64,000 nucleotides of DNA from Psammoneis japonica (taxonomy: Eukaryota): NCBI GenBank assembly GCA_008632985.1, contig QPGO01000166.1, forward strand, positions 62,001-126,000, in the 5' to 3' direction. Numbering within the stretch: position 1 is the first letter of the stretch; each line of letters begins with the position of its first letter. The notes under the pieces are model-generated. The model made no database searches. It was not told where the DNA came from and saw nothing but the letters and a program-made list of their open reading frames with translations. Positions 15,730 to 62,028 of the stretch are shown here, piece after piece. A program made the translations under genes and the position numbers.

Positions 15730-18700
15730 GCAGGCAATGTGAACGGGGCGACATGCCGGACGCAATCCAATCGAGTTGTGAATGCTGACATCATCGACAG
15801 TCTTGATCTGCATTTTGAACGCGTTCTTCTGTCCCATGACGTGCCCGGCTAACAACACAACTCACTTGCACGGCTCCTGCGGTTTCCAAAGCAAGTCCAA
15901 AACATCAACCTTTGACAACCCCTCCTGTTCTGTCGCACAATCTGACTTGGAATTGGCTGGCACCACCATGCAACCCAGGAAGCCGCTGCCCCCAGTGTTT
16001 TCTTTTTTTGAACATGAATGAACCATTTGCAACAAAGCTGAGAACACTGCAACCATGTGTTGGGCATGAAAGGGATCAACAACCACTGAATCTGCCTTGT
16101 CTGAATTTTTTTCTGCCAGTTGTCTCATTGCCAACACTGCCACAGTCCAGAAAAAAGGCTGTGTGGCGGCTGTTTGACCCTGATTTTCTTGACCATTTCA
16201 GTGCTGCCAATTCCTGGACAAAAGCCTCCTTGTGACCATGGACCCCAACACCACAGCTGGTCTTCACACTGGTCACTCAACTGTCCAAAAGACCACCCAA
16301 TCTGGTGTCATGGTTGGCTGGCTGGTCGAGCATTGCTGCCACTGACAGTGCCTGGGACATGCTGGGGTCAGTTCCCATGACTGGCCATGAATGCCTTGCT
16401 TTGCAACATCCAAGATTGTGTTGCCCTTTTTCTTGCAGGAAAGGGCCATCCCTGTAGAAAACTGCCTGGAGAAGGGAGATCTGCGGCCAAAACTCACCAT
16501 GTTGCTAGCCGCAGTGTGGGCATGCAGTGCTGACTTTCAAAGTCAAAAAGCTCAGTCAAAAATCCAACCATCTCCAACAAAAGGCTGGGGAGGCTTGGTG
16601 CCATTTCGCCATGTCATCCCACAACATCTGTTCTCAACTCAAAGAACAAAAAAAGTGCAAAGAGTGCAAGTTTGGAGTGGGGAGTGGCAGCCAACACAAG
16701 AGCAAAAAAAATTCGCATGGGAGCAATGATGAACAAATCCATCAATGCATTCAAAATTCACATGATGCCAACAGATCTTTAAGTCATGGACCAAAAAGGG
16801 ACAATGGACACCCCAAAAGCTGGCTCATCTTTTTTTTTTATTTAGAATCTTGCAAACAGGAAAATCTTTTCCATCTCTGCGGCAAAACAGTGCTTTGGCT
16901 CTTGCGTGCAGCATGGCCCACACAACTTCACAGTCAGCACAAATGCTCCAGCCAGGTGCAGCCACAAAGGCAAAGGAGGGCAGGTGCTGCATGATGACAG
17001 TGCCTCTTCATTGGCTTTTTTGGCTTTTTTCCCTGTGTTCTCCTTCACTTCCTTGGCTTTTGCACTCTTCTGCTGCCCCGATGCATGTGCGCACAAAGAG
17101 CACCAAAGCACAGACAGCCGCTAAAAATGGAGACTGTTGATGCACACCAACATGCAATGAAGAAAAGAGCACCCTTCTGCACACACAAAGCAGCCCTGCA
17201 AGTGCCTCTTCCTTTCAAACAGGCACAGCAAAAGAGCAACGGCAGCTAAATGGAAAAAACACTGCCACCTGGAAGTGGTCAAAGGAAGCAAGTGAAAGAC
17301 AAAAGGCAGTTGGCTGGGAAGGTCAGCTTGGAAAATGCAGTTGCCACAGACAAGAGCGGTGGCAACAATCAAGTGCCAAACCACATGAAAAAAAGTGAGT
17401 TGTTGCAACAAACCAACAAAGGCAGGTCATGCAAAAAAATTCCAATGTGTGCTGCCCACTTTTCCAGAGGCAGTGCAAGTTTTTCTGCTGTCTGTTGTCT
17501 GCTTTTCTGGGGTTTGCAGCACCACCTTGTGCTGAAGTGCCTTGCTTGCATTTGCAAGGATTGACCAAGCATGATCTGAACAAGCAAGTGGGCTTGACTC
17601 CAGCCCACTTGTTTTGCTCCCAGTCATGATGCAATGGACTTTGCATTGATGACCATCCCTGCACACAAGTTGCTGCTTGCTCATGCCCCAAAATGAACTG
17701 CGTGCATGTCCCTTGTGCTTTTCTGAGTTGTCCTCAAAGGTGCAGCTTGCACAGCCAGGTTTTTGGCACATTGGAGAGGTGCTCAACTGAGTTCACAGCC
17801 TCCTTTGCTCACAAATGAACTCTCCATCTTTCACCTCTCTGGGCTTGCAAAATTCAACAATGCCTTCCAGCTGCCAGCTGATGTGCTTTGCTGCCAAGGT
17901 CCACCCTTTGTGCAACCTCTTGAAGCATTTGGGCATGCAAGAACTCCAAGCCAGGTGCAGCTTCATTGAGAATGTGTGCCACAAATTCTCGTGCTTTGCA
18001 CCTGGGTCTTTGCCACTTCCCTGCTTGCAAAGATCACACAAGCTCTCACAAAGCTGCTGTTCTTTCCTGCACTGAGCTTTGCAAATCATGGGCTCCCCTG
18101 AGCTTTGGTGACAAAGTCTGTGTGTTCACTCAATGGCCTGCACTGTGATGATTTTTTCTTTGCAACTTGGGCAAGTTTTCTTTTGGTGCCTTGAAACCAG
18201 TGGTCTGCCACAAATGCTCTTGGGGAGTCTGTTGTTCTTCAACAGCCAAAAGCTGATCTTCCAGCATTGCAAATGCAGAAAAAGGCACTGCACAAATGAA
18301 AGTTGAGATGGCAGCCAAACAATGGCACCAATCTGCTGGGGTGCACATGTGCTTGAACAAAAATTTTTGAAATTTCCCTCAGTTGAGCAGAGCAGCTGCC
18401 CCTTGAAGCCATGACAAGGATTGGTTGGGGCAGCAGCTGCCCATGTGCTGTGAGCATTGCACGCCAACAGGGTGCATTCTTTCTGGCTGTCACTTGCCAA
18501 ACTCAGTGGGTCACTGACAAGAACACAGCACAGTGTGTCGTTTTGTGCAGCTCAATTGATGTTTCACCATCAAGAGTGCTTCAAATCATCTAGCTTGAGC
18601 CAAAAACACACCATGCAGACAATTGAGTGTGCCACAAAGCATCAAGTTGGTGTCAAGAAGAGCTGCCGTCCCAGGAATTTCTTTGGCAACCAATTTCCCT

Positions 18701-20450
18701 TCACCAGCAGGTTGAGCAGCACCAAGGCTGCTGCACTTTCTTTTTCCACCAATGCTGAAAAAGCCTTGCTTGGAAAAATCTGGTTGGCTCCCTTGGCTTT
18801 GGCAATTGCTGGATCTGGCAAGGCCTGAAAAAACTTGTCCCACACCCAGCACAACCCTTTGTGGCCTCAACCATGCTAGAATGCTGTGTGCTTCATCCCA
18901 TGCTTCACAACAAAATGGCCAAAATCTTCAGAACAATGCAAACATCTGCCAAGGCCTTGATGATGATTGTGCCCATGTCATTTGCAATCTCACTTGCTTG
19001 TGCTCGTTGGCTTCAGCAAAATGCTGATTGACAGCAATGTGAAATGACATCAGACGTCCACACAGATTTTCCCCGATTGCTCCCTGCAACAGTCTTGCAA
19101 CCCCACCTCAATGGTCTGGCACATGAGCTGTCCCAAGAAGCCCAAAACATCTGCACCACACCTGCAAACACCCAAGAAAAAGCATTGTTGAAATTGGCAC
19201 AAGCTTGAGTGTGTTGGCAGGTCTTCCAAACAAGGCATCACCATGGCTTTTAGCATCTCTTTCTCAACATGAGGGGTTGACAATTTCCACAAGCTTGGCA
19301 AACTTGCCCACACTGCTGGCCACATCTTTTCTTGGTGGGCTTGGTTGCCTTCTCAACATTGCCCCTTTTTGCACCTCCATCTCCACACCAATGCTGGGTT
19401 CTGCAAAAATGACACAAAGAGATTTGTTGACTTCAGCACATGCAGTGCAACTTTGAGCAAGTGCTTTCCAGGTGAGAATGCCAGCCAGGGCACCCTTTGC
19501 ATCAACAAAGCCACTCTCTCATTTTTCAAAATCTTGGCCACTCCCCTTGATGATTGGCATGGCAAGGCAACTCAACGAGCATTTTCTTCACCAGTTTTTG
19601 GCACAACAAAATCTTTGAGACAATGACCTTTGGCAGTTTGAAACAAATCATCAACAAAGCTGTCATGTTTTCAGCATCCTCCTCCTCTGACATGTCAAAC
19701 TCTTCTGGAATGTGTGATTTGTCATTCTGGCAGCTGTTGACATTGCTGACACCATTGTTTGTGGTGGCATCTTTCAAAGCTGCCTCAAATGAAAGTCTGT
19801 GCTTTCAGCAAATGATTTGTCTGTCAAGTTGCAGTGCCAGCAGGGCAACAGTTGGCAACAACAGCAGAGGGTGTCTTGAGAGTGGGAGCAGGTGGTGGAA
19901 ATTTTAAGAAACTGTCATTGGCGGAGTGAATGGCACACTTGTTTTAGAGAGCTTTGGACTTTTTTTCTGGCTGGCACATCAGCTGCTTTTCATTTTGTGA
20001 CATGATGGTGGGAGCCCCCGCATGCAGTTGCTTTGAATTTTTTGTGACACAAGCCATTGTTGCACATGATGTGCACTTCCAAGTTGCTCGCAACAACCTC
20101 CAGCTGGCAGCACCATGATGCATGCTGACAGTGTCACAGTGGTGCACAGTGTGAGGGGGGAGGTTGGCAATGTCCACAAGCTTGATGAACTTGTCTGCAC
20201 TGCTGATCTTTCCTTGATGGAGTCAGCTGGCTTCTCAATGTGTGCAGAATTCAGAGCGAAGAAGAGCCCAGGAGAAAGGAGAGAACGCAATGATCACAGT
20301 GGTGAATCGTGTCGATGTTTGTGTTGTGTTTTGTGCACTTGCACCGGTGCATGTTTGATGTGGTGTTGCTTTGTTGAGGCTTGACCAATTGTTGTCCAAG
20401 GGACGGAAAGCAAGGAAGGAAAAAGTTCCATGGATCGCTCTCTCGCTCGA
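15730..20450. other. TpA/CpG-depleted hypermutated block 1 (decayed TE or gene relics, family not identifiable)
   Basis: TA and CG nearly absent, TG/CA very abundant; ORFs are Tyr-free and Cys/His-rich. Confidence 0.85.
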
Positions 20451-20516
20451 GTGCATTTTACATTTTAAATAAATCGCCTGTGCACGCACAAAAGCACAAC
20501 CGCCTAAAACAAAAAA

Positions 20517-20543
20517 TGCTTCGACCGTGAATCGAACACGGGG

Positions 20544-20585
<42 letters not shown>

Positions 20586-20590
20586 AAGGC
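20517..20590 (-). tRNA. tRNA-Phe(GAA)
   Basis: Reverse complement GCCTTCGATAGCTCAGTTGGGAGAGCGTCAGACT-GAA-GATCTGAAGGCCCCGTGTTCGATTCACGGTCGAAGCA, followed by a T-run terminator. The acceptor stem has one extra or bulged C. Confidence 0.9.
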
Positions 20591-20654
20591 AGATGTGCGA
20601 TGGGCATAGGGTAATCTTTGATTATTTGAAGCCTGCAATGAGCAATTCCCTGAG

Positions 20655-20777
20655 CCAGTGAGGAGCTCTTGACTGAGGAACGACACTGTTGAAATGATTG
20701 GTAGAAAAACTAACTATATGTCAACGTGCACGTTGTCGTGTATAGTTGTGTGCTGGAATTGCAGTTTGGACCCGCCA
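20655..20777. repeat. tRNA-Phe 5' flank, copy A (direct repeat with 26521-26643)
   Basis: Ungapped by-eye alignment ccagtgaggagctc...ggacccgcca vs ccactgaggagctc...tgacccgcca. Confidence 0.9.
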
Positions 20778-22162: not shown

Positions 22163-25100
22163 TTACCAGGCAAAGTCTTCAAATTCAGAGTCTTCATCAT
22201 CTGATTCTGCCTCGTGGTCACCTTCATCTGAGTCTGAGTCTGCTTCCAGGTCATGGTCATCTGAATGCACGGTGTGCAATGAAGCGTCATCCGAAGCGTC
22301 GTCCGAGTATGTGTCTGCTAACTCATTGTAGCCAGCGGCTGCGGCCTCATCAATCCACTGACCGTAAAATGTTGGTTTCCCACAACTTCGAGGACCTGAT
22401 ACATTGTTATCGCTTGTAGCCAACGCAACAGCATCTTCCTCAGTGTTGTCGTTCTCCGTAGATGATTCGACGGTATCGACGGAACTAGCAACGGTAGGCT
22501 TTGCCAAGCCTGATGTATTGTACTCACTCGCAGCCAACTCAACAACATCTTCCTCGGCGCTGTCGCTCCTTGTACGTTCAACGGTATCGACGGAACTAGC
22601 AACGGTGGGCTTTGCCAAGCCTGATACATTGCACTCACTCGTTGCGGCCTCATCCTCGGCGCTGTCGCTCTTTGTACGTTCGACGGTATCGGCGGAATTA
22701 GTAACGGTGGGCTTTATCAAGATTGTTTCTGGCGGATCCTTTCTGGTAGTCGTGTCAGTAGCCATCGTCGCGTTGGATTGGGGGTGTTCCTTTCTAGACG
22801 TATCGGCAACCTTCTTTTTCTTGGGAGGATCCTTCCTATTACCGGTGGACGCCACTAGTTCTGCAGCCTTCCTCTTGTTTGATGATTCGGGGGGATCTTT
22901 CCTAGTAGAAACGGGAGGAGTTTCGTAATTGGCAACAAGGCCGTGAGTAATGGACAATGCAAGTGCCATTTTCCCTTGATCCCTTTCCAATTCAGCTTTG
23001 GCTTTTGCGGCTGCTTCACGCTCCTCGTCAGGCACCCGATGCTTTTCACGAATAGTCCACAGGGACTGAGTTTTTTCAACCTTTGCCAAGTGCTTTTCCG
23101 CCGTTGCAATGTGCTGACATTTCAAGCACTTGATTTTCCCATCAGCCTTGGTAAACGTCACTTCCACCGTGGTGATGTTTTCCTTTTCCCGAAGAAGTAG
23201 AATGTCGAACAAGGCGACAACGTCATTCCAGTAGATGTGCGTTTTGCCGCACTGACGGATCCAGCAAAGCAGGGCCCGACCGCACAACTCGTTGAACCAA
23301 TTGTTGCATTTATCCCTGTGATTTCGGATTGCTCGATTTTCTTTGGTAGACTTTTTGAAAATTCCGCGGCGCTGTCGGTCCTGCTCTTCGGCGGCCTTTC
23401 TCCTCTTCAATTCTGATCGAAGAGCATCGTCAGTGACAAGTTTTTCTTGTTGACGGTCCTGGAAGCTCCGTTGCTTGATGCGTTCCTTGGTCTGAATGTT
23501 GATGAGACCATGTTTTGCAACGTCTCTCTCATGCGCTTGCTTCACGCATTCACGATGACAGTCGACCCGCTTTTCTAGGACATCGAGGCGTTTCTTCTGC
23601 TCGTCGGAAAGGCTGCCAAGGTACGCCAACTCACGTCGCTCCATTTTGCGATGGCATCGCTGACAAACAAAACAGCCAGGACAACCGTGGCCGGTCCCTG
23701 TCATTGACCCTGTGCAAAACATGGTCCGAGAATCATTGCCCGCATTTCCGTTGTCAGCCAGACAAGGGCATGCTTTGGCGGGAGCATCAGCAATGGCCGG
23801 AGCACCAGGACAGCTCCACTGAAGACTCCAAGGTGAGATTGGATCAGAGTTGCCATCCGTCGACAGTTTGAGGTCATGAGCTTCCAACAGTTTGCAAAAG
23901 TTCCGTTCGGACAGGGACATGCCAAACCACAACGCATCGTGGCAATTGAGGTTCAATTGTTTGGAGACCGGCAATGCACCCTTCTTTGGTCCAGCAAAGC
24001 ACCCTCTGGGCATGGCAAGGAGTCGCGCCTTGTAGAAGCACTCGTCTTTGCACTTGTCAGTGTCTGATTTGCCACAACTCATCAGGAATGCCTGGAGAAT
24101 CTTGTGTTGATTCTGCACGTTCTCCGCCGAGACGATTCCGGACGCCAACAACAATTCCAAAAACGTTCGACACGCCTTGACGGCATCAAAACGATGTTGG
24201 TGCGACATCTCTTCGGCAAATGCAACAAAGAACGATGACGTGATGATGATGCGATGTTTGGTCGATCGAGAATGGACAAGACACAGCGCGCAGTTGGGCA
24301 AGACATCAATGCTGTCATCCATGTCGACCGTCTCTTGGAGCCATTTGCCGTGCTCCTTCTCCAAAGCGGCAACGGCACTCCGCTCAACAACAATGACGTT
24401 GTTGGTCGGCATTGACTTCAGAAGCCGTTGCAGGACGTCACGTGCACCTTTTGCAAGAGATTCCGCAGCTGGAGGTGCGCAATGACTCTTGTTTGCCCCC
24501 CGCAATTTTGTCATGACATTTCAAATGACCTTGTTGTTTTCATTTGTCATGGGCTCGGCCAAAGATGTTTCCAACTCGGCGAGCACTTCTTGCAGTTGGA
24601 GCTCGCGTGGACACGTCTTGATGGAGTTTTCGAAACCTCCGCAGCATTGTTCCCCAACAGACTCAATGGCTCGATTGTTCTTTACGAAGCCTCCCTTGGG
24701 TGGCAATGGCAAGAGCATGCGCTGCAGAAACTCGGACGTCTTGGACATTTCTTGCAATCAGCACGGGAGTGTTGGCCAAGAAAACTGAAAGAATGTCCCA
24801 CTTGGTGGAATGGGCGCACCAACCATGAATGCCTTGGCATCGTTGTCGATGGGAACCGGTGCGAGGGCATCCAGGACTTTAGAGGATGGGGAAGCGACGA
24901 GCCGCTCTCCGACGGGGCCCCACTTGCACTCGAGTGGCGATGATGCCACTGCTTCCGCCGCCTGCATCATGATGAGATCGTCAATCTCCTGCAGATGATC
25001 TGGGTGTGCAACAAGACCATCCAGTTCAGAGCTTTGATGTCGGTGAGAAGTTGTTGGGGAAGGAGCTCGTAAATTCGTTTTTGATCTAAAAGGCGTGCAG

Positions 25101-25500
25101 CGAATTGAACATTTTTCTGACGTCCGATGCACGCACGGCAATGGAGTGACACTCCAATCTTGATTTTTCTGTCGGCTCGGACAATGGTGTAGATGCCCAT
25201 CTCATCATCTGCCAAGGAGACTGGCTGCCACCATTTCTCATGAAGGTTTCCCTTGTTGTTCTTGCACTCTTGTCGCAAATGTTGTGTCAAGTGTTGTTTG
25301 AGTCATTTGGTTTTGTCGGTCTTCATTGATGTCGATCCGTCGCTGCACAGGGCATCACGGGTCGCAAGTCGAAGCCGTTTGGACAAATCTTCAACCGCAT
25401 CGTTCAGCTGCTTGCAGGTCTTGGGAGTCTCAAGAGAGCACTTCTTTCCTTCCCATTTGATCTCTGGTTTCATCTTTGCCATCTTGGAGTTGGCAGCAGC
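22163..25500 (-). pseudogene. long eroding gene of unknown function: intact 783-aa ORF (22163-24514) plus upstream broken ORFs; C-terminal tandem repeats and acidic tail
   Basis: Collinear minus-strand ORFs 25303-25734, 24967-25290, 24758-25141 and 24521-24757 separated by TGA stops and frameshifts. Tyr is scarce and Cys/His high in the 5' part. Repeats xxSGLAKPTVASSVDTVE. Confidence 0.55.
22395..22720. repeat. ~117-120-bp intragenic tandem repeat (~3 units)
   Basis: acggtatcgacggaactagcaacggt(a/g)ggctttgccaagcctgat recurs at ~22470, ~22581 and ~22683. Confidence 0.9.
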
Positions 25501-26520
25501 GGCGAGATTGTGCGGCGCAATGAAGGCATGGTGCGGAGTGTTCGATGCAGAGCGCATGGCATTGTCAACTTGGAAGCACCTTTTGAGGTGTGACAACGTC
25601 TGCTTTGACACCAAGAACTCCACAAAGCAGCCAGACGAAATGTGACAAAAATCAACAAACTGGCAAAGCACACGAAGCGTCACGGTTCTTTGCTCACCTC
25701 GCTGCAATTGTGGCAGTGGTGATGGCCGCGGCAAACAAGAATTGTGAGCTCGAGGTGCAGGAGCACAAGCAATCAGACATTTGGTCTACAGAGTCGCGAC
25801 GGCTCTCCACAAAAGAGAGCAAAGAGACGATTCGACCTGTGGAAAGCAGGTGGAAGCACAGTGTGGTTGTCAGTGGTGTTCCATGAGATGCCACGGTGCG
25901 ACGATTGCGGCATTTTCGGTTTGCCTGCTGAGATGCTTTGATTGCTGTGGCGGACGACAACATGCACGGGCAAATGGCGACAGCAACAACAAGCATGGAG
26001 GCAAGAGGAAGAAGCGTGATGACATTGAATTTGTGTGGCAGCAAGTGCGTGATGGAAGTGCACAGCGATCTGTGTGTCAAACTGTGCAACGGCCCAAAAA
26101 CGCAACACGAACGGCGAGCGAAGACGCCATGACCATACGACACATGTTGCAACACACGTCAACAGTGTGTCTCTTTAGTGGCGAACAAACGAGCGTCATG
26201 GTTGATGCGTCATGGTGCTTTCGTTCCTTGCCTTTTGTTGATTGTGGCGAGTGTGCGAAAAAAATGCCAGAACGGTGACCGCGCTGAGGTGCGCGAGCCG
26301 CAGATTTCTGCACAACCACAATAAAAAACATTTCCTGCCAAATGAGGGCATGCTGGGATGAGGGCCAATGTGGTCCCAAACCCCCATTTTCTTTTTTATG
26401 AAACAGCGTTTCTGGCCGACTGCTGTGATGCAACATCACACCAATGCAAAATTCTGGCTGTGGGTTGGACAACTGAGATTACCATCTGAGCCGTGGTCGC
26501 AATTGTCAAAAGCTTTTTAT

Positions 26521-26643
26521 CCACTGAGGAGCTCCCGACTGTGGAACGACACTGGTGAAATGATTGCCAGGAAAACTGACTGTGTTTCTGCTTGCAAGTC
26601 TTTGAGCACAGTTGTGTGATGGAATTGCAGTGTTGACCCGCCA
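26521..26643. repeat. tRNA-Phe 5' flank, copy B (mutated)
   Basis: Aligns to 20655-20777 with all TA sites changed. Confidence 0.9.
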
Positions 26644-26688
26644 AGCCCCAAGCTGTTGTGCCATTTGAGCTGTTCACACAAAAACACA

Positions 26689-27500
26689 GTGAGCGAAACT
26701 CAGGGCCTTCAGATCTTCAGTCTGATGTTCTCCCAAACTGCTGGGCCATCAAAGCTGCTAAACTGACGCTGTTTAGATTGTTTGTGCCATGCAGCACTCT
26801 CCGTGCATTTGCTGCCAAGGCAACAACTTCTTGCACCACACTTTTCAAAGTTTTTTCTGATGCTCTCCCAAGTGGAGCTGTCAAAGTCACCAAGCTGTTG
26901 CCACTGAGCTGCCCACACAAAAACAGCAAGCCAGGCACAGGGTTTTCAGATCTCTGCAGTCTGACACTCTCCTGAACTGAGCCATCAAAGCCATGTTCAG
27001 CAGCTCAGTTTGAGAGAGCACCAGACTGAAGATCGGAGCACCCTGCACTTCTTGATTGGCAACCCATTGTGTGTGACGTGTTCATTTTAAATGGCAGTGC
27101 TGAAGCAGCTTTTAACAGCTCAGTTCAGGAGAGCATCAGGCTGAAGATCTGAAGGCAACATGTTTGATTTGTGGTCTCTCACATGAACATTTTTAATGGC
27201 AAGCTCTCACCAGCTTCGACAGCTCAATTTGGGAGAGCAGTGGACTAAAGATTTCAAGGCCCCATGTTTGATTCATGGTCTCTTGTGTTTGAGAGCATCA
27301 TGCCAAAAATCTGAAAGCTCTGTGCTCAATTCACAGCATTCAATGGAGACATTTTAAATGCCAAATGCCCAGCAGCTTCAGCATCTCAGTTTGGGAGAGT
27401 GTCAAACTGAAGCTTGACTTGTGCTGCATTTGATGTGAAAGCACTTTAAATGGCAAGCACCCAGAGCTTCTACAGCTCAATGTTTGGGAGAGCACCAGCT
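26689..27500. pseudogene. cluster of ~8 degenerate tRNA-Phe copies (2 on -, ~6 on +)
   Basis: Recognisable pieces such as gccttcagatcttcagtctga (-), cagctcagtt..gagagc..cagactgaagatc (+) and ggccccatgtttgattcatggtc; recurrent spacer ttttaaatggca. Confidence 0.85.
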
Positions 27501-36500: not shown

Positions 36501-36540
36501 CATGCGCTACTCTACAGATGTTCACCGCACTCACAAGCCT

Positions 36541-38167: not shown

Positions 38168-38419
38168 GCTTTCGTAAAATCGGTGAAACGTTTGTTTATG
38201 CGAAAGGGTCGTCTTGTGGTGCAAAATCGTGAAGAAGATTGCGTTGATTTGACGGTATCGTCTTTTTCTCTTTTTGACGTATTGCTTGTGTGGTTTTGGC
38301 GGCAGTTCTGCCATACGGACGGACGGTCTCTGCTGGCTACCGGCAGGTGTGGACGGACTGCATGGCGGGCGCCGGCGGCGCGGGCGGCGGGCACAATGAT
38401 GTAACAGATAGACGCCCTC

Positions 38420-45482: not shown

Positions 45483-45572
45483 TTGGGTTCAAAACTGCGG
45501 TTTTGAACCCATTTGGGTTCAAAACTGGCAGTTTTGAACCCAAATTGGGTTCAAAAGTGCAGTTTTGAACCC
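45483..45572. repeat. three tandem ~30-bp palindromes GGGTTCAAAA-N5/7-TTTTGAACCC
   Basis: Read directly; lies in the divergent intergenic region. Confidence 0.95.
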
Positions 45573-46835: not shown

Positions 46836-46873
<38 letters not shown>

Positions 46874-49291: not shown

Positions 49292-49849
49292 AACGCGACG
49301 TTTACTTGTGCTACCAATCTTTGCTTTAATTTAGCATGTAACTGTGAATAGCGCCATAGCGCCTAGTACAAATTTCCAAATCGAGTAGTAGCTCGCTAGG
49401 ATGCGTTTCTGACTCTCTAATGCTGGTAAGGTCACTCTGAAGCTACCGTCGAACATACATACCGTACGAGATACCGTCCCGGTAAGCGAGCGTGGTTTCG
49501 TTTGCCCCAACGGACTGCGACTGCTGCGACGATGAGACCGTACAAGGTACGGCACTCTCTACTAATGCCGACAGACTCTCTACTTTTCTACTCTAGGTAG
49601 CTCTGGCTCTACTCTAGCTAGAAGTATAATAAGTAGTAGACTCTACTCTCTAGAGTAGAGAGGGCCCAACACTCTTCTAGAGAGGAGAGAGTGGAGGAGT
49701 CTATGGTCTACGGTGTATTACCGGTAGGCCTACCGGTACCGTACACTCTCCAACTCCTCGTAGGGAAACCCGGAGATAGAAAAGGCTCGCATCTCGCATT
49801 CTGCCTTGCACTTTGTTGCACAACATAACAGCACGAAACATCCGAGACC

Positions 49850-51087: not shown

Positions 51088-51400
51088 TGTTCGTCCGAGT
51101 TTGTGGATTGATAACGGAGTCCGTCGATAGATACGGATGCTTCTTTTTATAATGTCATGCTATCACTTATTCATAGCTGAGGGGAAAGGGTTGCCTCGAA
51201 TTATGTAATAAAGCAAAAGATTTTCATCGCGAAGACTACTAGACGGTAGTTCAGTTCCCGAGCCAAGTAAAAAAGAGGCTTCGGGGACGTCATTATCGAC
51301 TTGAGGTTCGATGCGCCAATAGAAACACGATAAAGACCGGAATCAAAAAGAACAGCAAGCACAAGAGAGGAAGAGCGTAAGTGCCGTCAGTCGTGAGGTA

Positions 51401-53200
51401 TCACCAGGCCTCATCGAGAATATAGTCGAAACGAAACTTGGATGAATGAGCATCTTCTTGATCTTCATTCTCCTCTTTCACCATCAAAATTTGCGACTTT
51501 TCCGATGGCATGCACTCCATGTTGCTAGCACCTTTTTTATTAGAGTCCACCCTTTGGAACGAGCGCATCGCTTTATGGATCACGTCGACGCCAAACTCAA
51601 AATTCGACTGCTTGTTTTGAGTGGTGATCTCTCCCTGCTTCGTTCAGGGTGGACCACACTCTCGGTCAGCAGTCTCTCTAGAGCTGACTTTCTAACATGA
51701 ATGGAAGAAGGAAGAATCAACACAAGAAACGCAATCTAATCTCAATCAAGACAGATGCAGTGTCAATTGTCCGTCTTGCTTTTCGTCGCGGCCGCAAAAT
51801 TCCAAAATCCCATCTTGCTTGTATGCGCGGTGAGCGCATAGCCCAAATCCAGTGGGATTTGTGTTGCACATGCAGACAGTGGCTCAAGCCTGTGTGTTGC
51901 GATTGCAGTGCCAGCAGGACAAGGGCCGTCTCGATTTTGTTTAAAGGTGGATTGTTGAGAGAGTCCCAGAGTTTGTAAAATGGCAGTCGCATCATCTTCA
52001 AAGTCCCAAAATTTGAGCATTTTTGGCATGCGCATGTTTGCATGCCAACAAGGCGAAGAAGAAAATGTTTGGTCTGTGGCGAATGAAGAGCCGAGCCATT
52101 GCCCCAAGAGGCTTTAAAGCACGCAGAACAAAATTCTAATGTCACTCAAGGGCTATGACGGTTTTAGCAATGCAGTGAGGGGGGTCAAAAAACTGCATCG
52201 ATTGAGGTTTTTACCTCAATTGAGGTGCTTGGTGGCCAGACACTCTGGCCAGCTGCTCAGCTGGCTCTAAAAAGTGGAGGGCCCTGCCGTCCTGCCGCAC
52301 ATCACACCACCCCTTCACAAATGGAGAACATCCACAACCCATGCTTGGGGGTCACAAAATGTCTCTGATGGCATTTTTGTCAAAAATCCAGAAGCCGGAT
52401 TCCGCGTGCACCGGTGCCCTCTGCAAACAAGTGCCTCCATTGACCTCTTGCAATGTCTCCAAAACACATTGTGACCTGCCTTGCTGCAATGCTGCATCAC
52501 AACATGGCTGAATTTGTTCTTGATCCAGAAGCAGTTGAATTCTCAGCAACAGGCAGATCACGAGCGTTGCTGACATGATGACCAATGGGAGTCATTGCGG
52601 CTTTGAGGGTCATTGCATGGAAATTGTGTGGAAGAGCACCAGAAATGATTGTTGTCAGTCTGTCTGCCCTTCTGCACTTGGATGTCAACTTCTTGGGAAA
52701 TCAATTGAAATGTTGTCTGATCAAAGGCACTGCTCTTCACCATGCAAATAAAAATGCCTTTGGTCAGATGACATTTCAGCTGAGTTCCCAAAACGTTGCT
52801 GGCTCCAATCACCCTCTTGCATGACATTGTGTGCATTTCTGCATGATTTGGCATTCTTCCTTGTGCAAAATGCCAATTGTGACTCTTGCAACATTCTCGA
52901 ATGATTCCCATTGGACATGAAATGAACAACTGCACTGACCAGCAAGTTGATGGGTGCTGTGTGACCGAAGCATTGTTGGCGAAGCTGTTGACAATCATGC
53001 ACAACAAACAAGTGTTTTGTCACTCAGCAAAATGCAACAAGCAGAAGCAGTTGTGTGTGTTGCTGTGCACTGCATTTCAAAATCTGTTGCAACACCCACT
53101 TTTGGCATCAACAAGAGTGAGACCATGTCAGAGAGCAAAGCACACATGCCCTTTGTTGCCAACTCAATTCCAGTGTCTTGTTGGAACTGTCAATGTGTGC
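51401..53200 (-). pseudogene. eroded gene whose 3' end lies in normal DNA and 5' part in block 4
   Basis: Protein-like minus-strand fragments (..SKFRFDYILDEAW*, DFEDDATAILQTLGL.., LTTIISGALPHNFHAMTLKAAM..) with more in-frame TGA and less Tyr further upstream. Confidence 0.4.
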
Positions 53201-56200
53201 CAAAAACTCTTCCAATTCCTGAATGAGTGGTTCCATCAACTGTGCATGCTGCCACTGCCACTGCTGCCACTTGTCACACAGTTGCAGCAATTGGGCCTGC
53301 TGCCGCTGCCACTGCTGATGCTTGATGCTGTTCACCATTTTCCAGGGATTTGGGCCACTGCTCCTGCTGAGTTGGGTGGATTGTTGACTCCATCAGCAAC
53401 ACAACAGTCAAGCCTGAAGTTCCAAGCCTGGCACTGACTTGACACTTGGGGACAAGAGTGACCTGGCAGACTTGGGTTCCTTGAGACTTTCTGGAAACAA
53501 TGGGTTGTGCCCTTGTCAATCTGTTGAGAACAAACTGGAAATGCAGTGCAAGCATGACAAGTGAGAATCCAGCAGATGGCACAGAAGGCAGTTTTTGCCC
53601 ATTCTTCCATTTTTTCTCACCTCTCTTTTCATGGGTGCATTTGTTGCAGCAAACAGCAATGTGTTCTTTGCTGATGTGATTGTTGGGAAGCATGCGGGTG
53701 TCATGATGGAGCAAAGCACCTGTCGACATTGTCATGGTTGATTTGTTGTCATCATGTTTGGTGTTCACAGCATGGGAAAAGAACATTTTTGCTGTTTTTG
53801 TGTCAGCAAGCCATGCATGCAATGCACACAGTGCATCACACACAATGCAACAATTGTGGCAAACCAGGCCGTGGGGAGCATTGACCACTTGTCTTTCTTT
53901 GTGGGTGTGGGTGTGTGCCGTTGCATGCTGCATTGCCTGCACTGTGCGCACGCAGGCCCTGCTGTGCCATGGGGCCAATGTTGCTGGTGTGTTGCAGTGG
54001 CAGTGTGGCATGGCTGCCACACTGGTGATGCAAATGACCATTGCATTTGATGGCTCATGCCATTTTTGAGGCTGCAGCGAGGTGCACGGACACTCTTTTT
54101 TTAGTTTGTCGCCAAAATGGCGCATCGCACAAAAGCACTCATTGTTCGATGTGTTTTTCCAATGTGACTGTTTTGTGTGCAATTCACAACAAATTGTGTT
54201 TGTCCAAAGCTCGGTGCATTTTTCAACATGCCATGCCGGCAACCCCAATTTTGCCGCACTTTCGAGCTCTCCTGAAAGACCATTCCATGCACCCACCACA
54301 GGGAATGCATGATTTTTTAGGATGTTCCCATGACCTCTAATGTCCTCAATGATCATCCTGCCAATCCAGATGATTCATTTGCTCTGAACAACCCATGCCA
54401 TTCCAAAATCTGAGGGACACACTTTCAAATTTGGATGGACCGACTGCCAGAGGACTGCCGGACCGACTGCCCGACACAAAAAAGTCTGCAATCACCAACC
54501 ACTGAGTGGTCAATGAAAGTCTGCAATCACCAACCACTGAGTGGTCAATGAAAATGCACTGCGTGAGGGTGCACATTGTTTCCCCTGCTCATCATTGGCG
54601 ATCAATTTGGACAAAAAAGTTTTGGCTTTGACAAGCTCACAGGGCACCAAAATGCATTTTGCAACCACATTTTGTGACAATGGCTTGTTTTAGAAGGAAA
54701 GCTTCTGTTTTGGCATGTTTGAGAACACACTGCCTGGGTGCTGAGAGCATGGCACATTGACAAGTCTGCTCTCAATGAGCATGAGTGAAGCAGGAGTCTG
54801 GGATGAAGTTGCAAAAGTGGGGCCCTGCCACACAGATGAAGCCTGCCTGAGGCAATCATGGCCAAGCTTTTTTCAGAACATCATCAGCTGTCTTTGTCAG
54901 CTGCACTTTGAGCAAGCTTGCAACACATTGGCCACAACTGGCAGCAATGTCCATGCCTCCACAGCGCTTCCAGTGCATGGAAGTGGAAAATCATGGGGAG
55001 TGTGTCAGGTGGCTTCTTGGGTCATGGTCTTTCTTGAAAAAATCCAACAAGCACAATGCCCGCTGCAATCAAAGAGCTTGCAATGGGCACCACCACAGTT
55101 TGGAAGAGTTGTCTTCAAGCATTGCTCAGCTTCCATGACCATCTCATCATCCACCAACTTGTGAAACTCCTGGGTCTCATTCTCGCTGGAAAGCAAATGT
55201 GAAAGAGCTTTCTCAGCAAAATCTCTTGGGCCAGCACACAGCCAATGTGGTCAATGATTGCTGCACTGGCTTGCTTTTGCAAGCAATGTCTTCCATGGGC
55301 ATTGATGGTTTCCACACTTGACTCTGTGTTTCTCATCACATGCAATGACACCTCACAGAGAGCAGCATCTTCTTGCAGGCTCCATCAAAAAGACCAATCA
55401 TTCTCAGCCAACCACTGGGGAACTCTCTTGCAAACTGCATCATCCAAAAGAGTGGACACATTTGGTTTGCAAAAAAAGCACTGTGCAGCTTTGGGACAAG
55501 AGGTGGGTCGTGTTGGACCCACTGAAAGGCTGTGCAAGTCATCAAGCCTCTTTTTCTCTTTGCTGTGCTTGGTTTTGACAAAGCTCTTGTGCAAAACCAC
55601 CATCATTGGTCCAGCCATTGGTGCTGTTTTGTTGACTGGTCTTTGTCTCGTGCACAGTGGCATGAGCAGGTGCATCTCATGACAGTGTGTGATGCAGCCA
55701 TTGTCAAATCACATCTGCTCTGGTCATGCCACAGATGCAAGCACCCAGAGCATCACTTGAGCATTGTCAAAATTTTCAGCATGGCTTGTGTGCATGCATT
55801 TTGGCTTTTTCGATCACAGTCTTTTAAGGTTTCAGTGGGCAGCATTTGGAGAGAAGATCTTGCTTGCGTGCAAGCAAACCCCTGGCAAAGACACCAATGA
55901 TCACAGGCGGGGTGGCCCTGCTGTGGGAGAAGCTGTCTTTGCCTTGTGGTCTCATTGTCTTGAGTTGCCAAAAGGTGCACAGCACGAGGAGCACTCAGAA
56001 GTGATCAAAGACTTCTGCCTGGGTCAGATTCTGCCCCACCAGGGCAATGATGCACAAGAAGCACCAGACTTGGTCAAAAGCATCATGGCACTCAGCTGGA
56101 GCAAGCACTCATCGCAGGGTGACAAAGCTCCAAAATGAGCTTGCAAACATCATTTTGCCATGCTTCAGAAAGCACATGCCAACAACCTGGACAACCCTTG

Positions 56201-59200
56201 GAAGACAAAAGGCAACTTTTGTTGTGCCCCAGTTTGCAAGAAATCTTCAACCTTGCACTTTCAAAGAGTGCCATGAGCATTGCTGGCACCTGGAAAGCAG
56301 CTGCCCCAATGCATTTTCAAGACCCCTCAAAAGCAAAGAAAAAGTGAGGTGCAGACTGCAACAGCTGTGCACTAAAAAAGCACAAGACATGTGCCAAGAG
56401 TGCAACAAACCAAAGTGTCCTTGAGTCTTGCCAAAGGTGATGGTGAGCAAACTTGGGAAGTTGCCATCAATGTTTCTGTGCACTCATCTGGCTTGGCCTT
56501 CTTTGAGATTGCTTTGTTCTGGCTGCATGAGTTGCTCAACTCATGCTGAATTTTTTTTGTGTGTGCCATCCTGACTGTGGTTGCTTGGGTGTGGATCCCA
56601 AGGAAGGCCGCATGTCTTGTCAAGATGGCTCTTTTGAGCCAACCATGAGACACTTGTGTCTGTGCACAAGTGCACCATGGGGATCACAAAAGTGCAGCAA
56701 TCTGGGCCTGCTGAAGGCTGCTGCAAGATGCACAAAACCTCATTTTGCACTTGCCACCTGCAGGAGGCACAAAGCTTGGCAATGCAAAAATCTAAAATGG
56801 CAAAAACAAACCCACAAGATGCACATGGAAGGTGATGGTGTGCACAACATGAAAGAGCATCATCAGCCATGTGTTTGGGCATCATCAAGCTGTGAAAGCA
56901 TGCGCCCATGATCAAAGTGGGTGGTTTGTTGGAGCTCTCACACACCCTTTTGTGATCTTGGTTGGATTCAACTTTGATTGCGTGGAGCTTTTGTGCGTGC
57001 TGCACTGCCCTGCTGGCAAGATTGTGCCCATGATTTGATGCCTCAAGCCTGGCATCTCACCTTGCCTGCCATGGCTCACAGTTGGCTGAGTGGGTCAAAC
57101 ATTTGGCATTGATGGGCGCCAACAAAGAGAGCATGTAGAGTGGCAGCTTAGAACATAAACTTGTCAGTGGTGAGAGAAGGTCAAGCAAATTGTGAGCATG
57201 AAGCTGAGGTGCAGACAAAGAAAGAATTGTGGTCATTTGCAGGAATGATCAACTGCTGTGGAGATGCATGGTGCGTCGCCATCTGGATGACATTTTTGGC
57301 ACACCTTGCAAGACTTGCAGCATGTGCCATCAATGGAGTTGGATGCATTTCAAAGAGAGGAAGCCTTCAGCCAGTGCCATCAAGCCATCAGCATCAGAAG
57401 AGATGTCACTTGCACAGAGATTTCAATGAAGCCATTTGAACTTTCCACCAGTGCCTCCAAACATCAGCTTGGAGAGCAGTGGTGTGTCACAGGGCTGGCA
57501 AGCCATTGGCACTTTGTGAAAGCAGAAAGCTCAACAGCAAGCAAGTGAGCCACATGCTGATGGAGAGAGAAATGCTTGCCATTGTCAAGACTCTAAAAGA
57601 ACCCAGTTCTACACTCCTTGGCAATCATGCAGCATTGTGTGTGCTGATCATCATGAAATCACTCACAATGTGCCCAGCACAATGATTGCACAATTTGTCA
57701 GCACTTGATGAGCAAAGAGTGCAGAAGGCCTGAATCACTGGGCATCAAAGGCCACCACAATTTGGTTGCTGATGTGCTGAGTTGTCTTGTTCTTGTGCCA
57801 CCCATGGACTCCAAATGCAGCCTCATCCCACAGCAACAGCAACACTTGAAGTGTGCCCTCCACATGAGGCCTTCACAGCAAAAGTGGCAGACAATCAAAA
57901 GACCCCATTGGCATCAAGCAACTGCAAATGGAACAGCACAAAGACAAGAGCAAGCATCTGACAAGTGCCTGTGCACTCTCCTTTTGTGAGGAAGAAATCC
58001 TCCCATGAGAGATGCTCTTTTTGTCACAAGGGCCACATTGTTGTCCAGGCATCCCTGCAGAAGCAGGTGCCTTGCACACATCAGGGGAGTGCATGGTCAA
58101 GTGATGCAGAAAGAAACTCCTGCATCTGTGGACAGTCAAGATGGGTTGAACCCACAACAGGCTGATTTGAGATTGCTGAAATGTCTGCATGGCATGCCAA
58201 AGCTGCATCTCATGACACTGAGCAAGTGTGGCTGCACAAATGCCCTTGGCCAAGGAAGGCAATTTTCAACAGAGGCAGCAAACTCATTGTCAGACACTCA
58301 GTCAAGGGATGCACAGGGTGGCTGTGGCCTTCAAAAAAGAAATCCACACGGCTGATCACACCAGCCTTCAGGCAAGCTCCACAGCAGAGAGCATGTGCAC
58401 AGGCAGCCAGAGACATGATGATGTGTGGCACAGGGCATGGAGCTGGATGGCACACCATCATCATGACTCACCTGAAAAATTTTGATCCGATTGCTCACTC
58501 CATGCTGCTCAAGCAAAGAGAGCAAACAATGGCAGTTGTGCCACAACTGCTGCACTTGACACTGACCATTGTTTGTGCAAGTGGCTTGGAGCTTGCGGTG
58601 GTTGCGTGTTCTGGGTCTTCTGGCATGGACTGTTTAGAGCAAGTTGTCTCCAATGGTGTGGAACACTGTTGTGGTGTTGCATCTCTTGTCATTCTTCCAG
58701 TGCTTGAAGGTGACAGAAATTGCATCGGCCAGTGCCAATTCTTGGTCTTCATGATCCAGTTTGGTGTCATCATGGAAAAAGTGCAGGTTCTTGAGTGTCA
58801 GTGGCTCAGTTCATTGTCCACATGTGGTTTTGGAGTGTTTGCAAGAATGCATTGCAAAGAGAGCCATGTTTCTGACTGGCACTCACCAAACAAGAACAAA
58901 AATCAAAGCACAGGGCTGTTGGTCATGCAGGCCTTGCTGAAGTTGGCTGCTTGTGTGAAGTGGTGACAGCTGCACATTGCACATGTTGCACTGGATGGTG
59001 CTCCAACACAGATGCACACAACCTGCCTTCAATTGTGCCTTCTGTTGTTGGCGTGGTGTCTGACATTTTGTGGACCTTGTCATGGGGAGTGAGCAACACA
59101 CACTGCACCACACCGGCTGATGAGACTGCTGGCAGGTGCAAGCAACATCTTGTTTCAAGAGGCTCTTGCTGCTGTGGGGTGCATGCAGCCCAAAAATGTG

Positions 59201-62020
59201 CACTGCACACACCTGCACAAACTCATGCTCATTGCACTGAGCAGGGGCACTGGCACAATCACACACTGACTGAGAGTGACCCACGTCATGAGGAGGGAGA
59301 GGGTTGTGTGTGCACTTGGTTGACCCAGCCTCAAAGTCACCATGGTGAACAAGCACTTGAGAAGCCTTTGCCAGCCCTTGTCAGCAGATGTGGTGGTGTT
59401 TGTGTGCATGAGTTGTGAGCAAGTGCTTTTTCATGTGCACCCGGGCATTTCATGGTGAAATGAGCCAGTTTAGAAGTGACTTTTGTGGCCATTGACAGCA
59501 GCAAACTTTGCTGCTGCTCAGTGCCCATTTCCCATCTTGTTGCACAGGGCAAGATTGTTCCTTTGAGTGAGTCATGGGTGCTTGTGTCTTTGAACAAACA
59601 AGCCATGGTGACCAAAAAATGATGATCATTGTCTGCCACCAGTGCAAATCAGTGCAGAGGGGTGTGCTGAGGTGTGCAAACTTGCTCAATGCCTGCAGGA
59701 GGCAAAGCTTGGCAACATGAAGCACTGCATTTGTGTGGCCACATCAGCAAGGTGTGCATGGAGAGGAGCAGTGTGGCTGCCAGTGTTGCACTGCACATTC
59801 TTCTTGCTCAGTGCCCACAGGGGGAGCAAAGCTTGGCAATTTGATCCTGATTTATGTGCTGAAATGGAGGGATTGCAGGGGCTGCAGCTGACTGCTGCAA
59901 GAGATGCACATGGAGAGAAGCACCCCAGCCAACACAGCTTTGCACCTTCCAGTGTGCAATCCATCTGTGTCTTCCCCCTGCCCTGACCCCTGCTGGACCG
60001 GAGACAGATGGGTGAGACAAAGTTGGGGTTTGGGGCTGACCACTTTCAAAATGACTGAATTTGCAAGCATGGTCTTTGTGTGTGAAACGGCCTCCAATCA
60101 CTTTCAAAGGCTTTGAGACACACACAAAATTTGCTCAGCATGTGGCCACAAAACATTGAAAATTTGAATTGCCAGCTTCTTTTTGTCTTTTTATGAGACT
60201 CACCTCTCATCAGTGGCGGACATGCAAAACTCATTGACAGCAAACATGCCACCATTGAAAATCAGCAAAGACAGATGAAGCAAAACCAACCCTCAACTCT
60301 TGTTTTGATGCCTGCTCTGGCAACTGCACAACACAACCCCCCACAGATTTCTGCTGGTGAGCAGGCCCCTTCCTGCCCTTTGCTCATGTGCCCCAAAACA
60401 TCACTGGGCTCAGCTGGCAAAACACGGGGAAGGTGACCTCACCCAACAACTGCCAATCTTCATCAACTCTGGGCCAACCAAAGGAGCACCTTCCCTCAAC
60501 TCAACCCCCCCTCCCCCCAAAAGCCAGCTGTGTGTGCCTCTGCTTCCTTTTTCTCCTCCTCCACACACCCCCTTGCTGAGAAGGTTGAAAAAGTCAGAGG
60601 ATGCCAGCCATGACAGAGAAACTGAAGAAGCAGGCCCACATGCCTTGGTCAGCCCCCAGCAGTCTGCTTGACATGAGCACCTGGGCAGGCTGCAAACAAA
60701 GAGTCCTCAAGCAGCTTGCTTTGCAATGTGAAAGAAAGTGGCTGGCTTGACTGGGCTTGCCAAATCATGGTGGACAACAAAACTGCTGCTGGTGTGCACA
60801 TCTTCAACTTCATCGGCCCACCAAGAGCTGGGCAGCAAGCCACAAGGGCAGCAGGCACAAGTGTCACACTCTCTCTGCTGATTGCACCAAGCAAACAGAG
60901 CAAGTGGTTTTGCCAAGTTGAAGAGAGAGGCAAGAAGCCAAGATGATGCCAACAAGCTCAGTTTTGTTTCACCACAGGATTTCCCAAAATTCCCTGGGGG
61001 ATCACTGCCTTTTGCTGTGTTCTTCCATGGAAAGCATGAGTTTCTGGGGAACAAACACAAATTGTGCTTCATTGTGCATGTGCTTGACACATGAACAAAA
61101 AATTGCACATTGGAAATTGCCCATGCTTCCCTGTGCAATTTGACATGAGCGCAGCTGTCCCAGAGCTGTGCAGCACTGTCAGACACCACACACCACACCG
61201 TCACACTCTTCTGCCACTTCAACAGCTCAGAGTGCTGTTGTTCATTGACAATGGCAGCTGCTCAGCTTCTCTGCAGCTGTGGCATCTTTTCGTGGCCTGA
61301 ATTCTTTCTGATGCCACTCAGTCGGTGCCACATGTTTCTCATTGTGACACGAGTGGCAGTCGCATCTTTTTGTTCAGATGACACCCACCCAACACATCAT
61401 CACATCAAGATGGGTGGCAAAGTTGTGTTTGGGACACAGCCAGCTGGATGTGTGGCTGGTGCAAGCAGTCATGCAGCAGCAGCCAAGCAGATCAACCCGC
61501 AACACAACAAACAATGGCAACAGCAGCAAGCTCCAAACTGCAGCATGATGACAGATGCTCTCTGAGAGCAGACAGTGACAAAATCTGTTGGACCCAGAAG
61601 CACACCTGCCCAAACTGTGTTGATCCAGAGTCACCGCGATCCATGCATTTTCTGCTCCCCCCCCTGAGCCCTTTCAGCTGCTCCTTTTGCCGTCTCCCGG
61701 GCATGTCCCAAAAGGGCAAGCAGCTCCCCCTTGCCCTTGCCATTTTGGGGGATCCCCGGGTGGGTGAACCAAACCAAGCCAACAAGATGCTTTGAAGCAC
61801 TTTTGCAGTGCTTTTCAACTTTTGCCAATTTCCCTCTGGCATGACAGCCCACCTTTGAGATGAGTCAACTTGAACCTCGTGGCAAAAGACTGTGTCAACG
61901 AAGATGAAAGATCTTTTGTGAACGTGCGCGCAGGAGCACAGTGTCGGGTGAACGGGGCACGGCCATCCAGCAAAGTGTCCAACCCATGTTGGAGTCAGTC
62001 AACTCTGAGTGAATGAACAC
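51980..62020. other. TpA/CpG-depleted hypermutated block 4
   Basis: Same composition as block 1; contains the Gypsy relic and a 35-bp tandem duplication at ~54483-54552. Confidence 0.85.
57200..57790 (+). mobile_element. degenerate Ty3/Gypsy LTR-retrotransposon pol fragment (RT thumb + RNase H)
   Basis: KKELWSFAGMINCCGD (cf. KELRSFxGMxNYYRD), PFELSTSASKHQLG (PFxLxTDASxYxLG), GKPLAL..SRKLNSKQ..EREMLAIVKTLKE, IKGHHNLVADVLSCL (GxxNxVADALSRL). Confidence 0.85.
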
Positions 62021-62028
62021 ATAAAAAA

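Follow-up and report, generated by a model that had tools for sequence, protein, structure and literature searches.

We analyzed a 64,000-nt stretch of the genome of the diatom Psammoneis japonica (GenBank assembly GCA_008632985.1, contig QPGO01000166.1, forward-strand positions 62,001 to 126,000), which we call the window and number from its first nucleotide. Four blocks that contain almost no TA or CG dinucleotides lie in this window amid ordinary DNA. The stretch is compact and eukaryotic, with long single-exon open reading frames (ORFs) for TRM13, pieces of SMC, Vac14, an RNA methyltransferase, a DEAD-box helicase, a CS-domain protein, and CIA30. The Vac14 ORF is 66 to 75% identical to its best database matches, and the named matches are nearly all from diatoms: Nitzschia, Pseudo-nitzschia, metagenome-assembled genomes of Bacillariaceae, Fistulifera, Epithemia, and Thalassiosira. 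Two ordinary genes lie close to the blocks, namely, an intact tRNA-Phe(GAA) gene (20517 to 20589, minus strand; Rfam tRNA match, 64.1 bits) and a housekeeping ORF with the domain Methyltrn_RNA_3 (37346 to 38449, minus strand), whose 5' end is within about 40 bp of the start of block 3. In a survey of public runs, no RNA sequencing run was listed as containing the stretch.

When we analyzed the blocks in 1-kb windows, the observed/expected ratio (o/e) ranged from 0.00 to 0.12 for TA and from 0.05 to 0.17 for CG, with CG values of up to 0.30 to 0.36 in three edge or internal windows. TG and CA were enriched (1.61 to 2.16 and 1.53 to 2.22). In the flanks and gene islands, the o/e was 0.45 to 0.94 for TA and 0.71 to 1.29 for CG. 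We also pooled the cores of the blocks (28,454 nt: 16000 to 20200, 26750 to 36200, 38500 to 43900, and 52500 to 61900). Their o/e was 0.04 for TA, 0.12 for CG, 1.91 for TG, and 1.83 for CA, versus 0.56 to 0.62, 1.00 to 1.01, 1.08 to 1.11, and 1.09 to 1.10 in ordinary DNA, at about the same G+C content (0.483 versus 0.475 to 0.482). Each block retains between 8 and 31 TA, while about 170 to 380 would be expected at the density of the flanks. This depletion cannot be due to chance. An earlier note on this DNA, made from the sequence alone, had described four blocks nearly without TA and CG, with an excess of TG and CA and with ordinary neighbors, and our measurements agree. It had also named similar TA ratios in blocks and gene islands as the outcome that would speak against its reading; the two are clearly unlike.

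The limits of each domain were set by the last and first TA positions around it. In block 1, the TA-depleted domain spans 15726 to 20458 and encloses a CG-depleted core at about 15985 to 20256; just 12 TA remain in 4.2 kb, and 10 of these are in the context YTAR (where R is a purine and Y is a pyrimidine). The domain of block 2 (about 22950 to 36313) comprises a zone that is depleted of TA only (22950 to 26300) and a core that is low in both TA and CG (26300 to 36313). Block 3 (38410 to 43936) is low in both. In block 4, the TA-depleted domain (52269 to 62021) encloses a CG-depleted core at about 52413 to 61877. Together, the TA-depleted domains make up about 52% of the window (about 33 kb). 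The outer ends had previously been placed at 15730 and 62020, which is correct to a few bases.

The TA-only zone, which goes beyond what the earlier note described, has an o/e of 0.07 for TA and 0.91 for CG, with a G+C content of 0.516. It shows that the loss of TA is a separate process from the loss of CpG. More broadly, the loss of TA reaches farther out than the loss of CG at seven of the eight edges; at the eighth, the two limits coincide. The overhang is 30 to 260 bp, except to the left of block 2, where it is 3.3 kb. The boundaries are resolved to tens to hundreds of base pairs; at about 23000 to 23700, the density of TA climbs gradually toward the edge. We read this nesting as a targeted domain in which the conversion of TA is fast and the decay of CpG is slow, so that TA-only zones would be the recent (younger) targets. 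Alternatively, the TA-only fringe may be the part that methylation did not reach.

Related copies inside and outside the blocks show what the missing dinucleotides became. A 123-nt segment beside the tRNA-Phe gene (20655 to 20777, plus strand) has a copy at the edge of block 2 (26521 to 26643, plus strand) with 80% identity, and all six TA of the unmutated copy are TG or CA in the mutated one. From 26650 to 27550, block 2 contains degenerate tandem units that derive from tRNA-Phe and are 94 to 96% identical to the gene in purine/pyrimidine coding. The single TA of the tRNA-Phe gene has become CA in both of the derived units that could be aligned, and most of its CG have become TG or CA. The gene itself retains its TA and its CGs. 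It lies 58 bp beyond the edge of block 1, where TA resumes at 20459, and it may be the boundary of the domain or may simply have been retained by selection. The units of the array are about 100 to 115 bp long, are partly palindromic, and are seen mainly in purine/pyrimidine coding; judging from the sequence, the array may be SINE-like (that is, like a short interspersed nuclear element) or the remnant of a tRNA gene cluster.

The TA-only zone contains a pseudogene from an uncharacterized, multicopy family of diatom proteins (23056 to 25302, minus strand; the tblastn homology runs from 25302 to 23056). The tblastn alignment stays in a single frame, with no frameshifts across 634 aligned amino acids. 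All of the in-frame stops are TGA: two are in the homologous part (24760 to 24758 and 24523 to 24521), and five more are upstream. An open frame of 783 amino acids (P0121; 22163 to 24514, minus strand) extends from the pseudogene into ordinary DNA. A word-based search for homologues with residues 1 to 520 of P0121 gave no match, but a later, full HMMER search did find homologues: 143 at E <= 0.001 and 16 at E <= 1e-30, with all of the matches in residues 1 to 529.

If TA is converted to TG or CA, then tyrosine codons should become codons for cysteine or histidine, as the earlier note had predicted, and this is what the pseudogene shows. On average, members of the family contain 3.0% Tyr, while residues 1 to 505 of P0121 contain 0.6% Tyr, 5.1% Cys, and 3.8% His. 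In an alignment with 39 homologues, 10 columns have a majority of Tyr, and P0121 keeps none of them: seven are now Cys (five) or His (two), and the others are Trp, Lys, and Ala. In the same alignment, P0121 keeps Phe in 9 of 10 columns, Trp in 4 of 4, Cys in 4 of 4, and Leu in 26 of 35. In a second alignment, with X at the stops, 125 of 184 conserved columns are kept, including 0 of 7 for Tyr and 10 of 16 for Arg (three are now His and one is TGA). Of 27 homologues, 19 have Arg at the column of the stop at 24523 to 24521, and the column of the other stop, too, has Arg as its commonest residue. From its sequence, the pseudogene appears to be young, with the loss of TA complete and the decay of CpG only under way.

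Because TA->TG/CA changes make no stop codons and remove TAA and TAG, the frame of the pseudogene would stay open and run on into 23000 to 22163. In this ordinary DNA (22163 to 23000, minus strand), the frame of P0121 reads 111-bp (37-amino-acid) tandem repeats (22395 to 22715) and an acidic tail. This downstream part is either a separate host gene or a chance read-on. The same property matters for annotation: genes that have been hit keep long open frames, since TAA and TAG are lost and no stops are made, and repeats become invisible to similarity searches.

The family comprises 143 representatives at 50% clustering (P0122 to P0264), and all of the members that we looked up are metagenomic. 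Of 22 members scanned, 18 have no Pfam domain, two match HA, one matches GCR1_C, and one has a sub-threshold match to DUF4428. One homologue has a confident AlphaFold model (pLDDT, the predicted local distance difference test, of 88.8). By sequence, the family had no match in PDB below E = 0.27. When the model was compared to PDB with Foldseek, the best hits were like uracil-DNA glycosylase (UDG), with a best E value of 0.1, and none was convincing; in BFVD, the model had no match at E <= 0.001; and with VIA-align, the best Z score (6.7) was no higher than chance arrangements can give. The model predicts an alpha/beta domain at about residues 205 to 487 that weakly resembles the UDG or MoaB folds, as well as a winged-helix-like part at residues 707 to 797.

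Just three of the 143 homologues contain less than 1% Tyr. Two of these are fragments of 66 and 77 amino acids. The third, P0165, has Cys, Val, Cys, and Cys at its four Tyr-majority columns. A longer member of its cluster (P0269) is on two metagenome contigs, L001 (13,083 nt) and L002 (3,735 nt). L001 has no nucleotide similarity to the window, and the named eukaryotic relatives of its cyclase gene are from the diatoms Seminavis and Cyclotella. On these contigs, the family copy has an o/e of 0.10 to 0.26 for TA and 0.85 to 1.2 for CG. Elsewhere in L001, two regions (6001 to 7500 and 10501 to 11000) look like small versions of the window's blocks, with TA at 0.14 to 0.32, CG at 0.16 to 0.49, and TG and CA at 1.55 to 2.05.

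The alignment of L001 with L002 is free of gaps over 3,427 nt and takes in an ordinary flank, so the two represent the same locus. They differ at 18 positions: 11 are TA versus TG or CA, 4 are CG versus TG or CA, and 3 are other changes. Since TA sites make up 3.4% of the bases, this is a strong excess of TA differences (binomial P = 2e-12). Per base, divergence is about 89-fold higher at TA and about 9-fold higher at CG than at other bases; per site, TA diverged about 10 times faster than CG. The surviving TA is in L002 at eight of the TA differences and in L001 at three, as expected if both lineages lose TA. There are no differences in the first 1,204 aligned nucleotides, and TA is near normal only in about the first 500. 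These results argue against an assembly-specific artifact and against editing during retro-copying. Comparing copies, both here (11 of 18 differences) and in the window's duplicates (6 of 6 TA), gives the substitution spectrum that the earlier note had anticipated.

The loss of TA depends on the flanking bases. Of the 68 TA that are left in the blocks, 53 are YTAR, 14 are YTAY or RTAR, and just 1 is RTAY, which corresponds to survival relative to the flanks of 0.27, 0.024, and 0.003, respectively. The classes differ strongly (chi-square p = 2e-39), with the same ranking in all four blocks. Similarly, positions 501 to 3000 of L001 have no RTAY left, although the ordinary density of this contig would predict about 24. 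This ranking fits a half-site rule in which the favored target would be the A of 5'-TAY-3' or, equivalently, the T of 5'-RTA-3'. Under this rule, RTAY is open to attack on both strands, YTAY and RTAR on one strand, and YTAR on neither.

The half-site rule also predicts the direction of change at the asymmetric sites: YTAY should become YTGY, and RTAR should become RCAR. We compared the gains in these favored products (YTGY plus RCAR) to the gains in the unfavored ones (YCAY plus RTGR), both measured against ordinary DNA. Per kilobase, the favored and unfavored gains were +20.6 versus +8.7 in the TA-only zone and +24.9 versus -8.6 in L001. In the blocks, they were +36.8 versus +15.7; the half-site rule predicts +34.1 and +14.1, while a context-free rule predicts +24.1 for each. 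The ratio of YTGY plus RCAR to YCAY plus RTGR is 1.62 in the blocks and 1.26 in the flanks (p = 5e-6). Individual sites behave in the same way. Among the Tyr codons of the pseudogene, both that became His have a 5' G, both with a 5' T became Cys, and none of seven contradicts the rule. The expected direction is also followed at all three of the asymmetric sites of the duplicate pair and at seven of the nine informative sites in L001 and L002.

We then asked how much of the composition of the blocks can be explained by conversions of TA and CG. Together, TA, CG, TG, and CA have a frequency per nucleotide of 0.233 to 0.235 in ordinary DNA, versus 0.243 for the blocks and 0.249 for the TA-only zone. 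This sum is conserved, which matches the prediction of conversion within this set of four. When saturating TA->TG/CA and CG->TG/CA changes were applied in silico to the window's own ordinary DNA, the resulting o/e was 1.89 for CA and 1.88 for TG, versus 1.83 and 1.91 in the blocks. Simulating the conversion of TA only gave a G+C content of 0.519, versus 0.516 in the TA-only zone. The CG that survive in the block cores are concentrated in different contexts. Relative to the flanks, survival is 0.58 for GCGC, 0.46 for CCGC/GCGG, and 0.42 for ACGC, but just 0.11 for ACGA/TCGT and 0.15 for TCGA. This context rule differs from that for TA, which fits a separate process. Among tetramers, AGCT and GCCC are about 2-fold enriched in the block cores compared to the simulation, and ATTC, ATCC, and TGAA are about 2-fold depleted.

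The earlier note had spoken of repeat compartments and of transposable element (TE) proteins, and this part is not supported for most of the block DNA. The blocks share almost no detectable similarity with each other. A nucleotide self-comparison of the window found just six pairs, none of which joins different blocks. In purine/pyrimidine coding, a self-comparison found a few short degenerate repeats (such as 56621 to 56842 with 59550 to 59775) and the tRNA-derived units, but no block-wide families. Of the 176 stop-to-stop ORFs of at least 90 amino acids, 150 were scanned against Pfam; none had a TE or viral domain, and there were only three sub-threshold matches at the level of chance. A scan of six read-through frames, which covered block 3 alone, found no Pfam families.

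Two further features are worth recording. First, block 4 contains an open frame of 366 amino acids (53277 to 54374, minus strand), which is longer than expected if only TGA stops are left (the rough probability by chance is about 0.06). It has no match in Pfam and no Atlas match, and the local o/e for CG is somewhat raised, at 0.30. Second, a 31-bp palindromic unit is repeated 2.9 times (45483 to 45572) in ordinary DNA upstream of the ORF for the DEAD-box helicase, at a distance of about 260 bp.

We consider it quite likely, from these sequence comparisons, that a separate DNA-level hypermutation of TpA to TpG or CpA operates in bounded domains. This view is well supported because four independent lines of evidence lead to it. 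The conversions, their context, their separability from the loss of CpG, the ratio of the rates, and the sharp, nested boundaries are shown by the sequences themselves. The central proposal of the earlier note, that a second, domain-restricted process converts TpA to TpG or CpA, is thereby supported.

In the explanation that we propose, chromosomal domains of a pennate-type diatom would be hit by two separate DNA-level transition processes. The first would be a fast, domain-targeted conversion of TpA to TpG or CpA (A:T to G:C), which could act on either strand and would prefer the A of 5'-TAY-3'; RTAY would be erased first and YTAR last. By recoding Tyr to Cys or His, it would leave a recently hit gene copy open but inactivated. 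The second would be a slower decay of CpG to TpG or CpA in the cores of the domains, as expected from the deamination of 5-methylcytosine. CGA->TGA stops would then accumulate after the loss of TA.

Several observations weigh against this explanation. Two of the nine informative polymorphisms between L001 and L002 are in the unfavored direction. The preference for a 3' pyrimidine is not absolute: YTAR is mostly lost in the young zones as well, and in the window's TA-only zone, its survival is 0.19 and the difference between classes is not significant (p = 0.28). The two-process simulation also leaves some of the composition unexplained, as GpC has an o/e of 1.39 in the blocks but only 1.06 in the simulation, and GA/TC is at 0.85 to 0.89 in the blocks versus 1.11 to 1.12 when simulated; moderate shifts in 3-mers and 4-mers are likewise unaccounted for. 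These residuals imply that the blocks are more than mutated gene-like DNA. Finally, just the family pseudogene and the tRNA-derived units can be shown to be foreign or repeated DNA, and for most of the block DNA, no origin was recognized.

As to the agent, we see about an even chance that it is an enzyme of the TadA/ADAT fold that deaminates adenine to inosine in silenced or foreign DNA. This suggestion is made by analogy with a process that was measured in the alga Bigelowiella natans, which is discussed below. Among our results, only the TAY context bears on a TadA/ADAT-fold candidate, and it is compatible with one. More tentatively, and with more doubt than confidence, we suggest that diatoms may have a defense in which a TadA-like DNA adenine deaminase acts at 5'-TAY-3' on silenced or invading DNA, at about 10 times the per-site rate at which CpG decays; roughly half of this region would have been rewritten in this way. 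Because the same signature was measured in a chlorarachniophyte, it might represent an old and widespread "A-type" form of repeat-induced point mutation (RIP) within the SAR group (stramenopiles, alveolates, and rhizarians), carried out by a natural adenine base editor that works in a double-strand context.

The alternative that fares best, although we think it unlikely, is that the initial event is not the deamination of adenine. Instead, the T of 5'-RTA-3' would carry the lesion (for example, after an enzyme modifies it to hydroxymethyluracil, which then mispairs or is repaired incorrectly), or A or T would bear a different mutagenic modification. The A of TAY pairs with the T of RTA, so every sequence result fits either base. 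Also, in dinoflagellates, hydroxymethyluracil is enriched at TpA. On the other hand, the outcome is nearly pure transitions, with 15 of the 18 differences between L001 and L002 being of the TA or CG type. This is the simple expectation if adenine is converted to inosine, which is read as G, while base-excision intermediates are expected to yield mixed outcomes.

An artifact seems very unlikely. In this case, errors in sequencing, base calling, or polishing at heavily modified DNA would hide a true sequence that keeps its TA and CG. The stretch is found in just one sequencing study, from which the assembly itself may have been made, and this also counts against our explanation. However, the TA-only signature and the differences between TA and TG/CA recur in two metagenome contigs, which are from other samples and another organism. 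Furthermore, about 65% of the stretch from which 31-mers were sampled is block, and the contigs of one run contain a fraction of 0.87 of them, which would be hard to obtain from noisy reads, and the pseudogene has CGA->TGA stops at columns where Arg is conserved.

It is more improbable still that the transcripts of repeats were hyperedited by an ADAR-like enzyme (A to I in RNA) and that the edits were fixed by reverse transcription and reinsertion. The preference of ADARs for a 5' U does match TpA (bioRxiv 10.64898/2026.01.13.699255). However, L001 and L002 share an ordinary flank and are the same locus, which means that the 11 TA differences between them arose on syntenic copies, in place. 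Whole multikilobase domains are depleted, with nested loss of CG, and these include tRNA-derived units and a duplicated intergenic segment. Also, ADARs prefer a 3' G, which is the opposite of the context that we found: TAY is favored, and YTAR, which includes TAG, is the most protected class. Lastly, the idea that the composition is native or selected (either foreign DNA that lacked TA and CG from the outset, or selection against both) could draw on the excess of GpC and the deficit of GA/TC, from which it follows that mutation of gene-like DNA does not by itself account for the blocks, but it can practically be dismissed given the replacement of conserved Tyr by Cys or His in a pseudogene whose family has 3.0% Tyr, the changes at all six TA between the duplicates, the same changes between the functional tRNA-Phe gene and its derived copies, and the concentration of polymorphism at TA in L001 and L002.

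How does this process compare to known systems? RIP, as it occurs among ascomycete fungi, is similar in that it, too, resembles a genome defense: within restricted domains, very many transitions inactivate DNA that is duplicated or invading and make copies less alike. Unlike the process described here, RIP converts C:G to T:A, mainly CpA to TpA, so it makes TA and lowers the G+C content. Instead of an excess of TpA and a drop in G+C, the blocks have a TA o/e of 0.04, an excess of CA and TG, and an unreduced G+C content (0.483 versus 0.475 to 0.482).

The decay of CpG when 5-methylcytosine is deaminated, as seen for the methylated repeats of vertebrates, plants, and some fungi, resembles what we see in the cores, where CG has become TG or CA, the o/e for CG is 0.12, and CG survives best in G+C-rich contexts. 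The three Arg->His changes and one CGA->TGA change in the pseudogene and the four CG-type differences among the 18 between L001 and L002 are of this kind. However, this process accounts for the CG half of the pattern only, as it cannot remove TA.

For TadA, ADAT2-ADAT3, and the adenine base editors, the resemblance is in the motif. The natural target of the TadA/ADAT enzymes, A34, is always preceded by U33, and the motif of bacterial TadA is U-A-C-G, which is TAY-like, as is the context that fits our data. Unlike the agent proposed here, TadA and ADAT2-ADAT3 are RNA enzymes, and their activity on DNA was engineered or has been reported in single cases (bioRxiv 10.64898/2026.01.13.699255). Should a natural DNA adenine deaminase prove to be the agent, it would be of direct interest for the enzymology of base editing.

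The closest precedent is in Bigelowiella natans. The earlier note knew of no description of such a process, but a 2026 preprint reports hypermutation of A:T to G:C at TpA only in this alga (bioRxiv 10.64898/2026.01.13.699255). We searched the literature for TpA hypermutation in diatoms and found no report; only this preprint was returned, and a SPLASH paper that names both diatoms and hypermutation is unrelated. According to the main text of the preprint, 231 of 302 nuclear mutations in mutation-accumulation lines were in integrated nucleocytoplasmic large DNA virus (NCLDV) and virophage sequences, and 230 of these 231 de novo mutations were A->G or T->C, all at TpA (bioRxiv 10.64898/2026.01.13.699255). 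The rate was about 6e-7 per site per generation, or about 1,000 times background; 124 further TpA-depleted clusters were found in the genome; and an ADAT2-like protein was put forward as the agent (bioRxiv 10.64898/2026.01.13.699255).

Judging from that text, the two systems are alike in several ways. In both, the conversions are exclusively of TpA to TpG or CpA, in particular genomic domains amid ordinary DNA, with enrichment of CpA and TpG; the rate is far above background (about 1,000-fold there and, between L001 and L002, about 89-fold per base here); many of the affected sequences cannot be annotated; and a deaminase of the ADAT/TadA type is proposed.

The systems also differ. B. natans is a chlorarachniophyte (a rhizarian), while Psammoneis is a diatom (a stramenopile). 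The NCLDV region of B. natans has an o/e of 0.45, while the depletion here is saturated, with an o/e of 0.04, and covers about half of the window. The targets there are integrated viruses, while we recognized no viral genes here. The de novo rate was measured across generations in B. natans, while ours is inferred from standing sequences alone. A CpG-depleted core is enclosed within the domains here, and none is reported in that paper; similarly, we describe an RTAY/TAY context, and the words "trinucleotide," "context," and "flanking" are absent from its main text. Compared to that main text, the RTAY/TAY context, the rate ratio of about 10:1 to CpG decay, and the nested CpG-depleted cores are new handles on the process. 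Overall, our results would mean that a process just reported from a single rhizarian alga, and mechanistically unsolved, also occurs in the diatoms, a major and genetically tractable group; in this window, it appears to have run to saturation.

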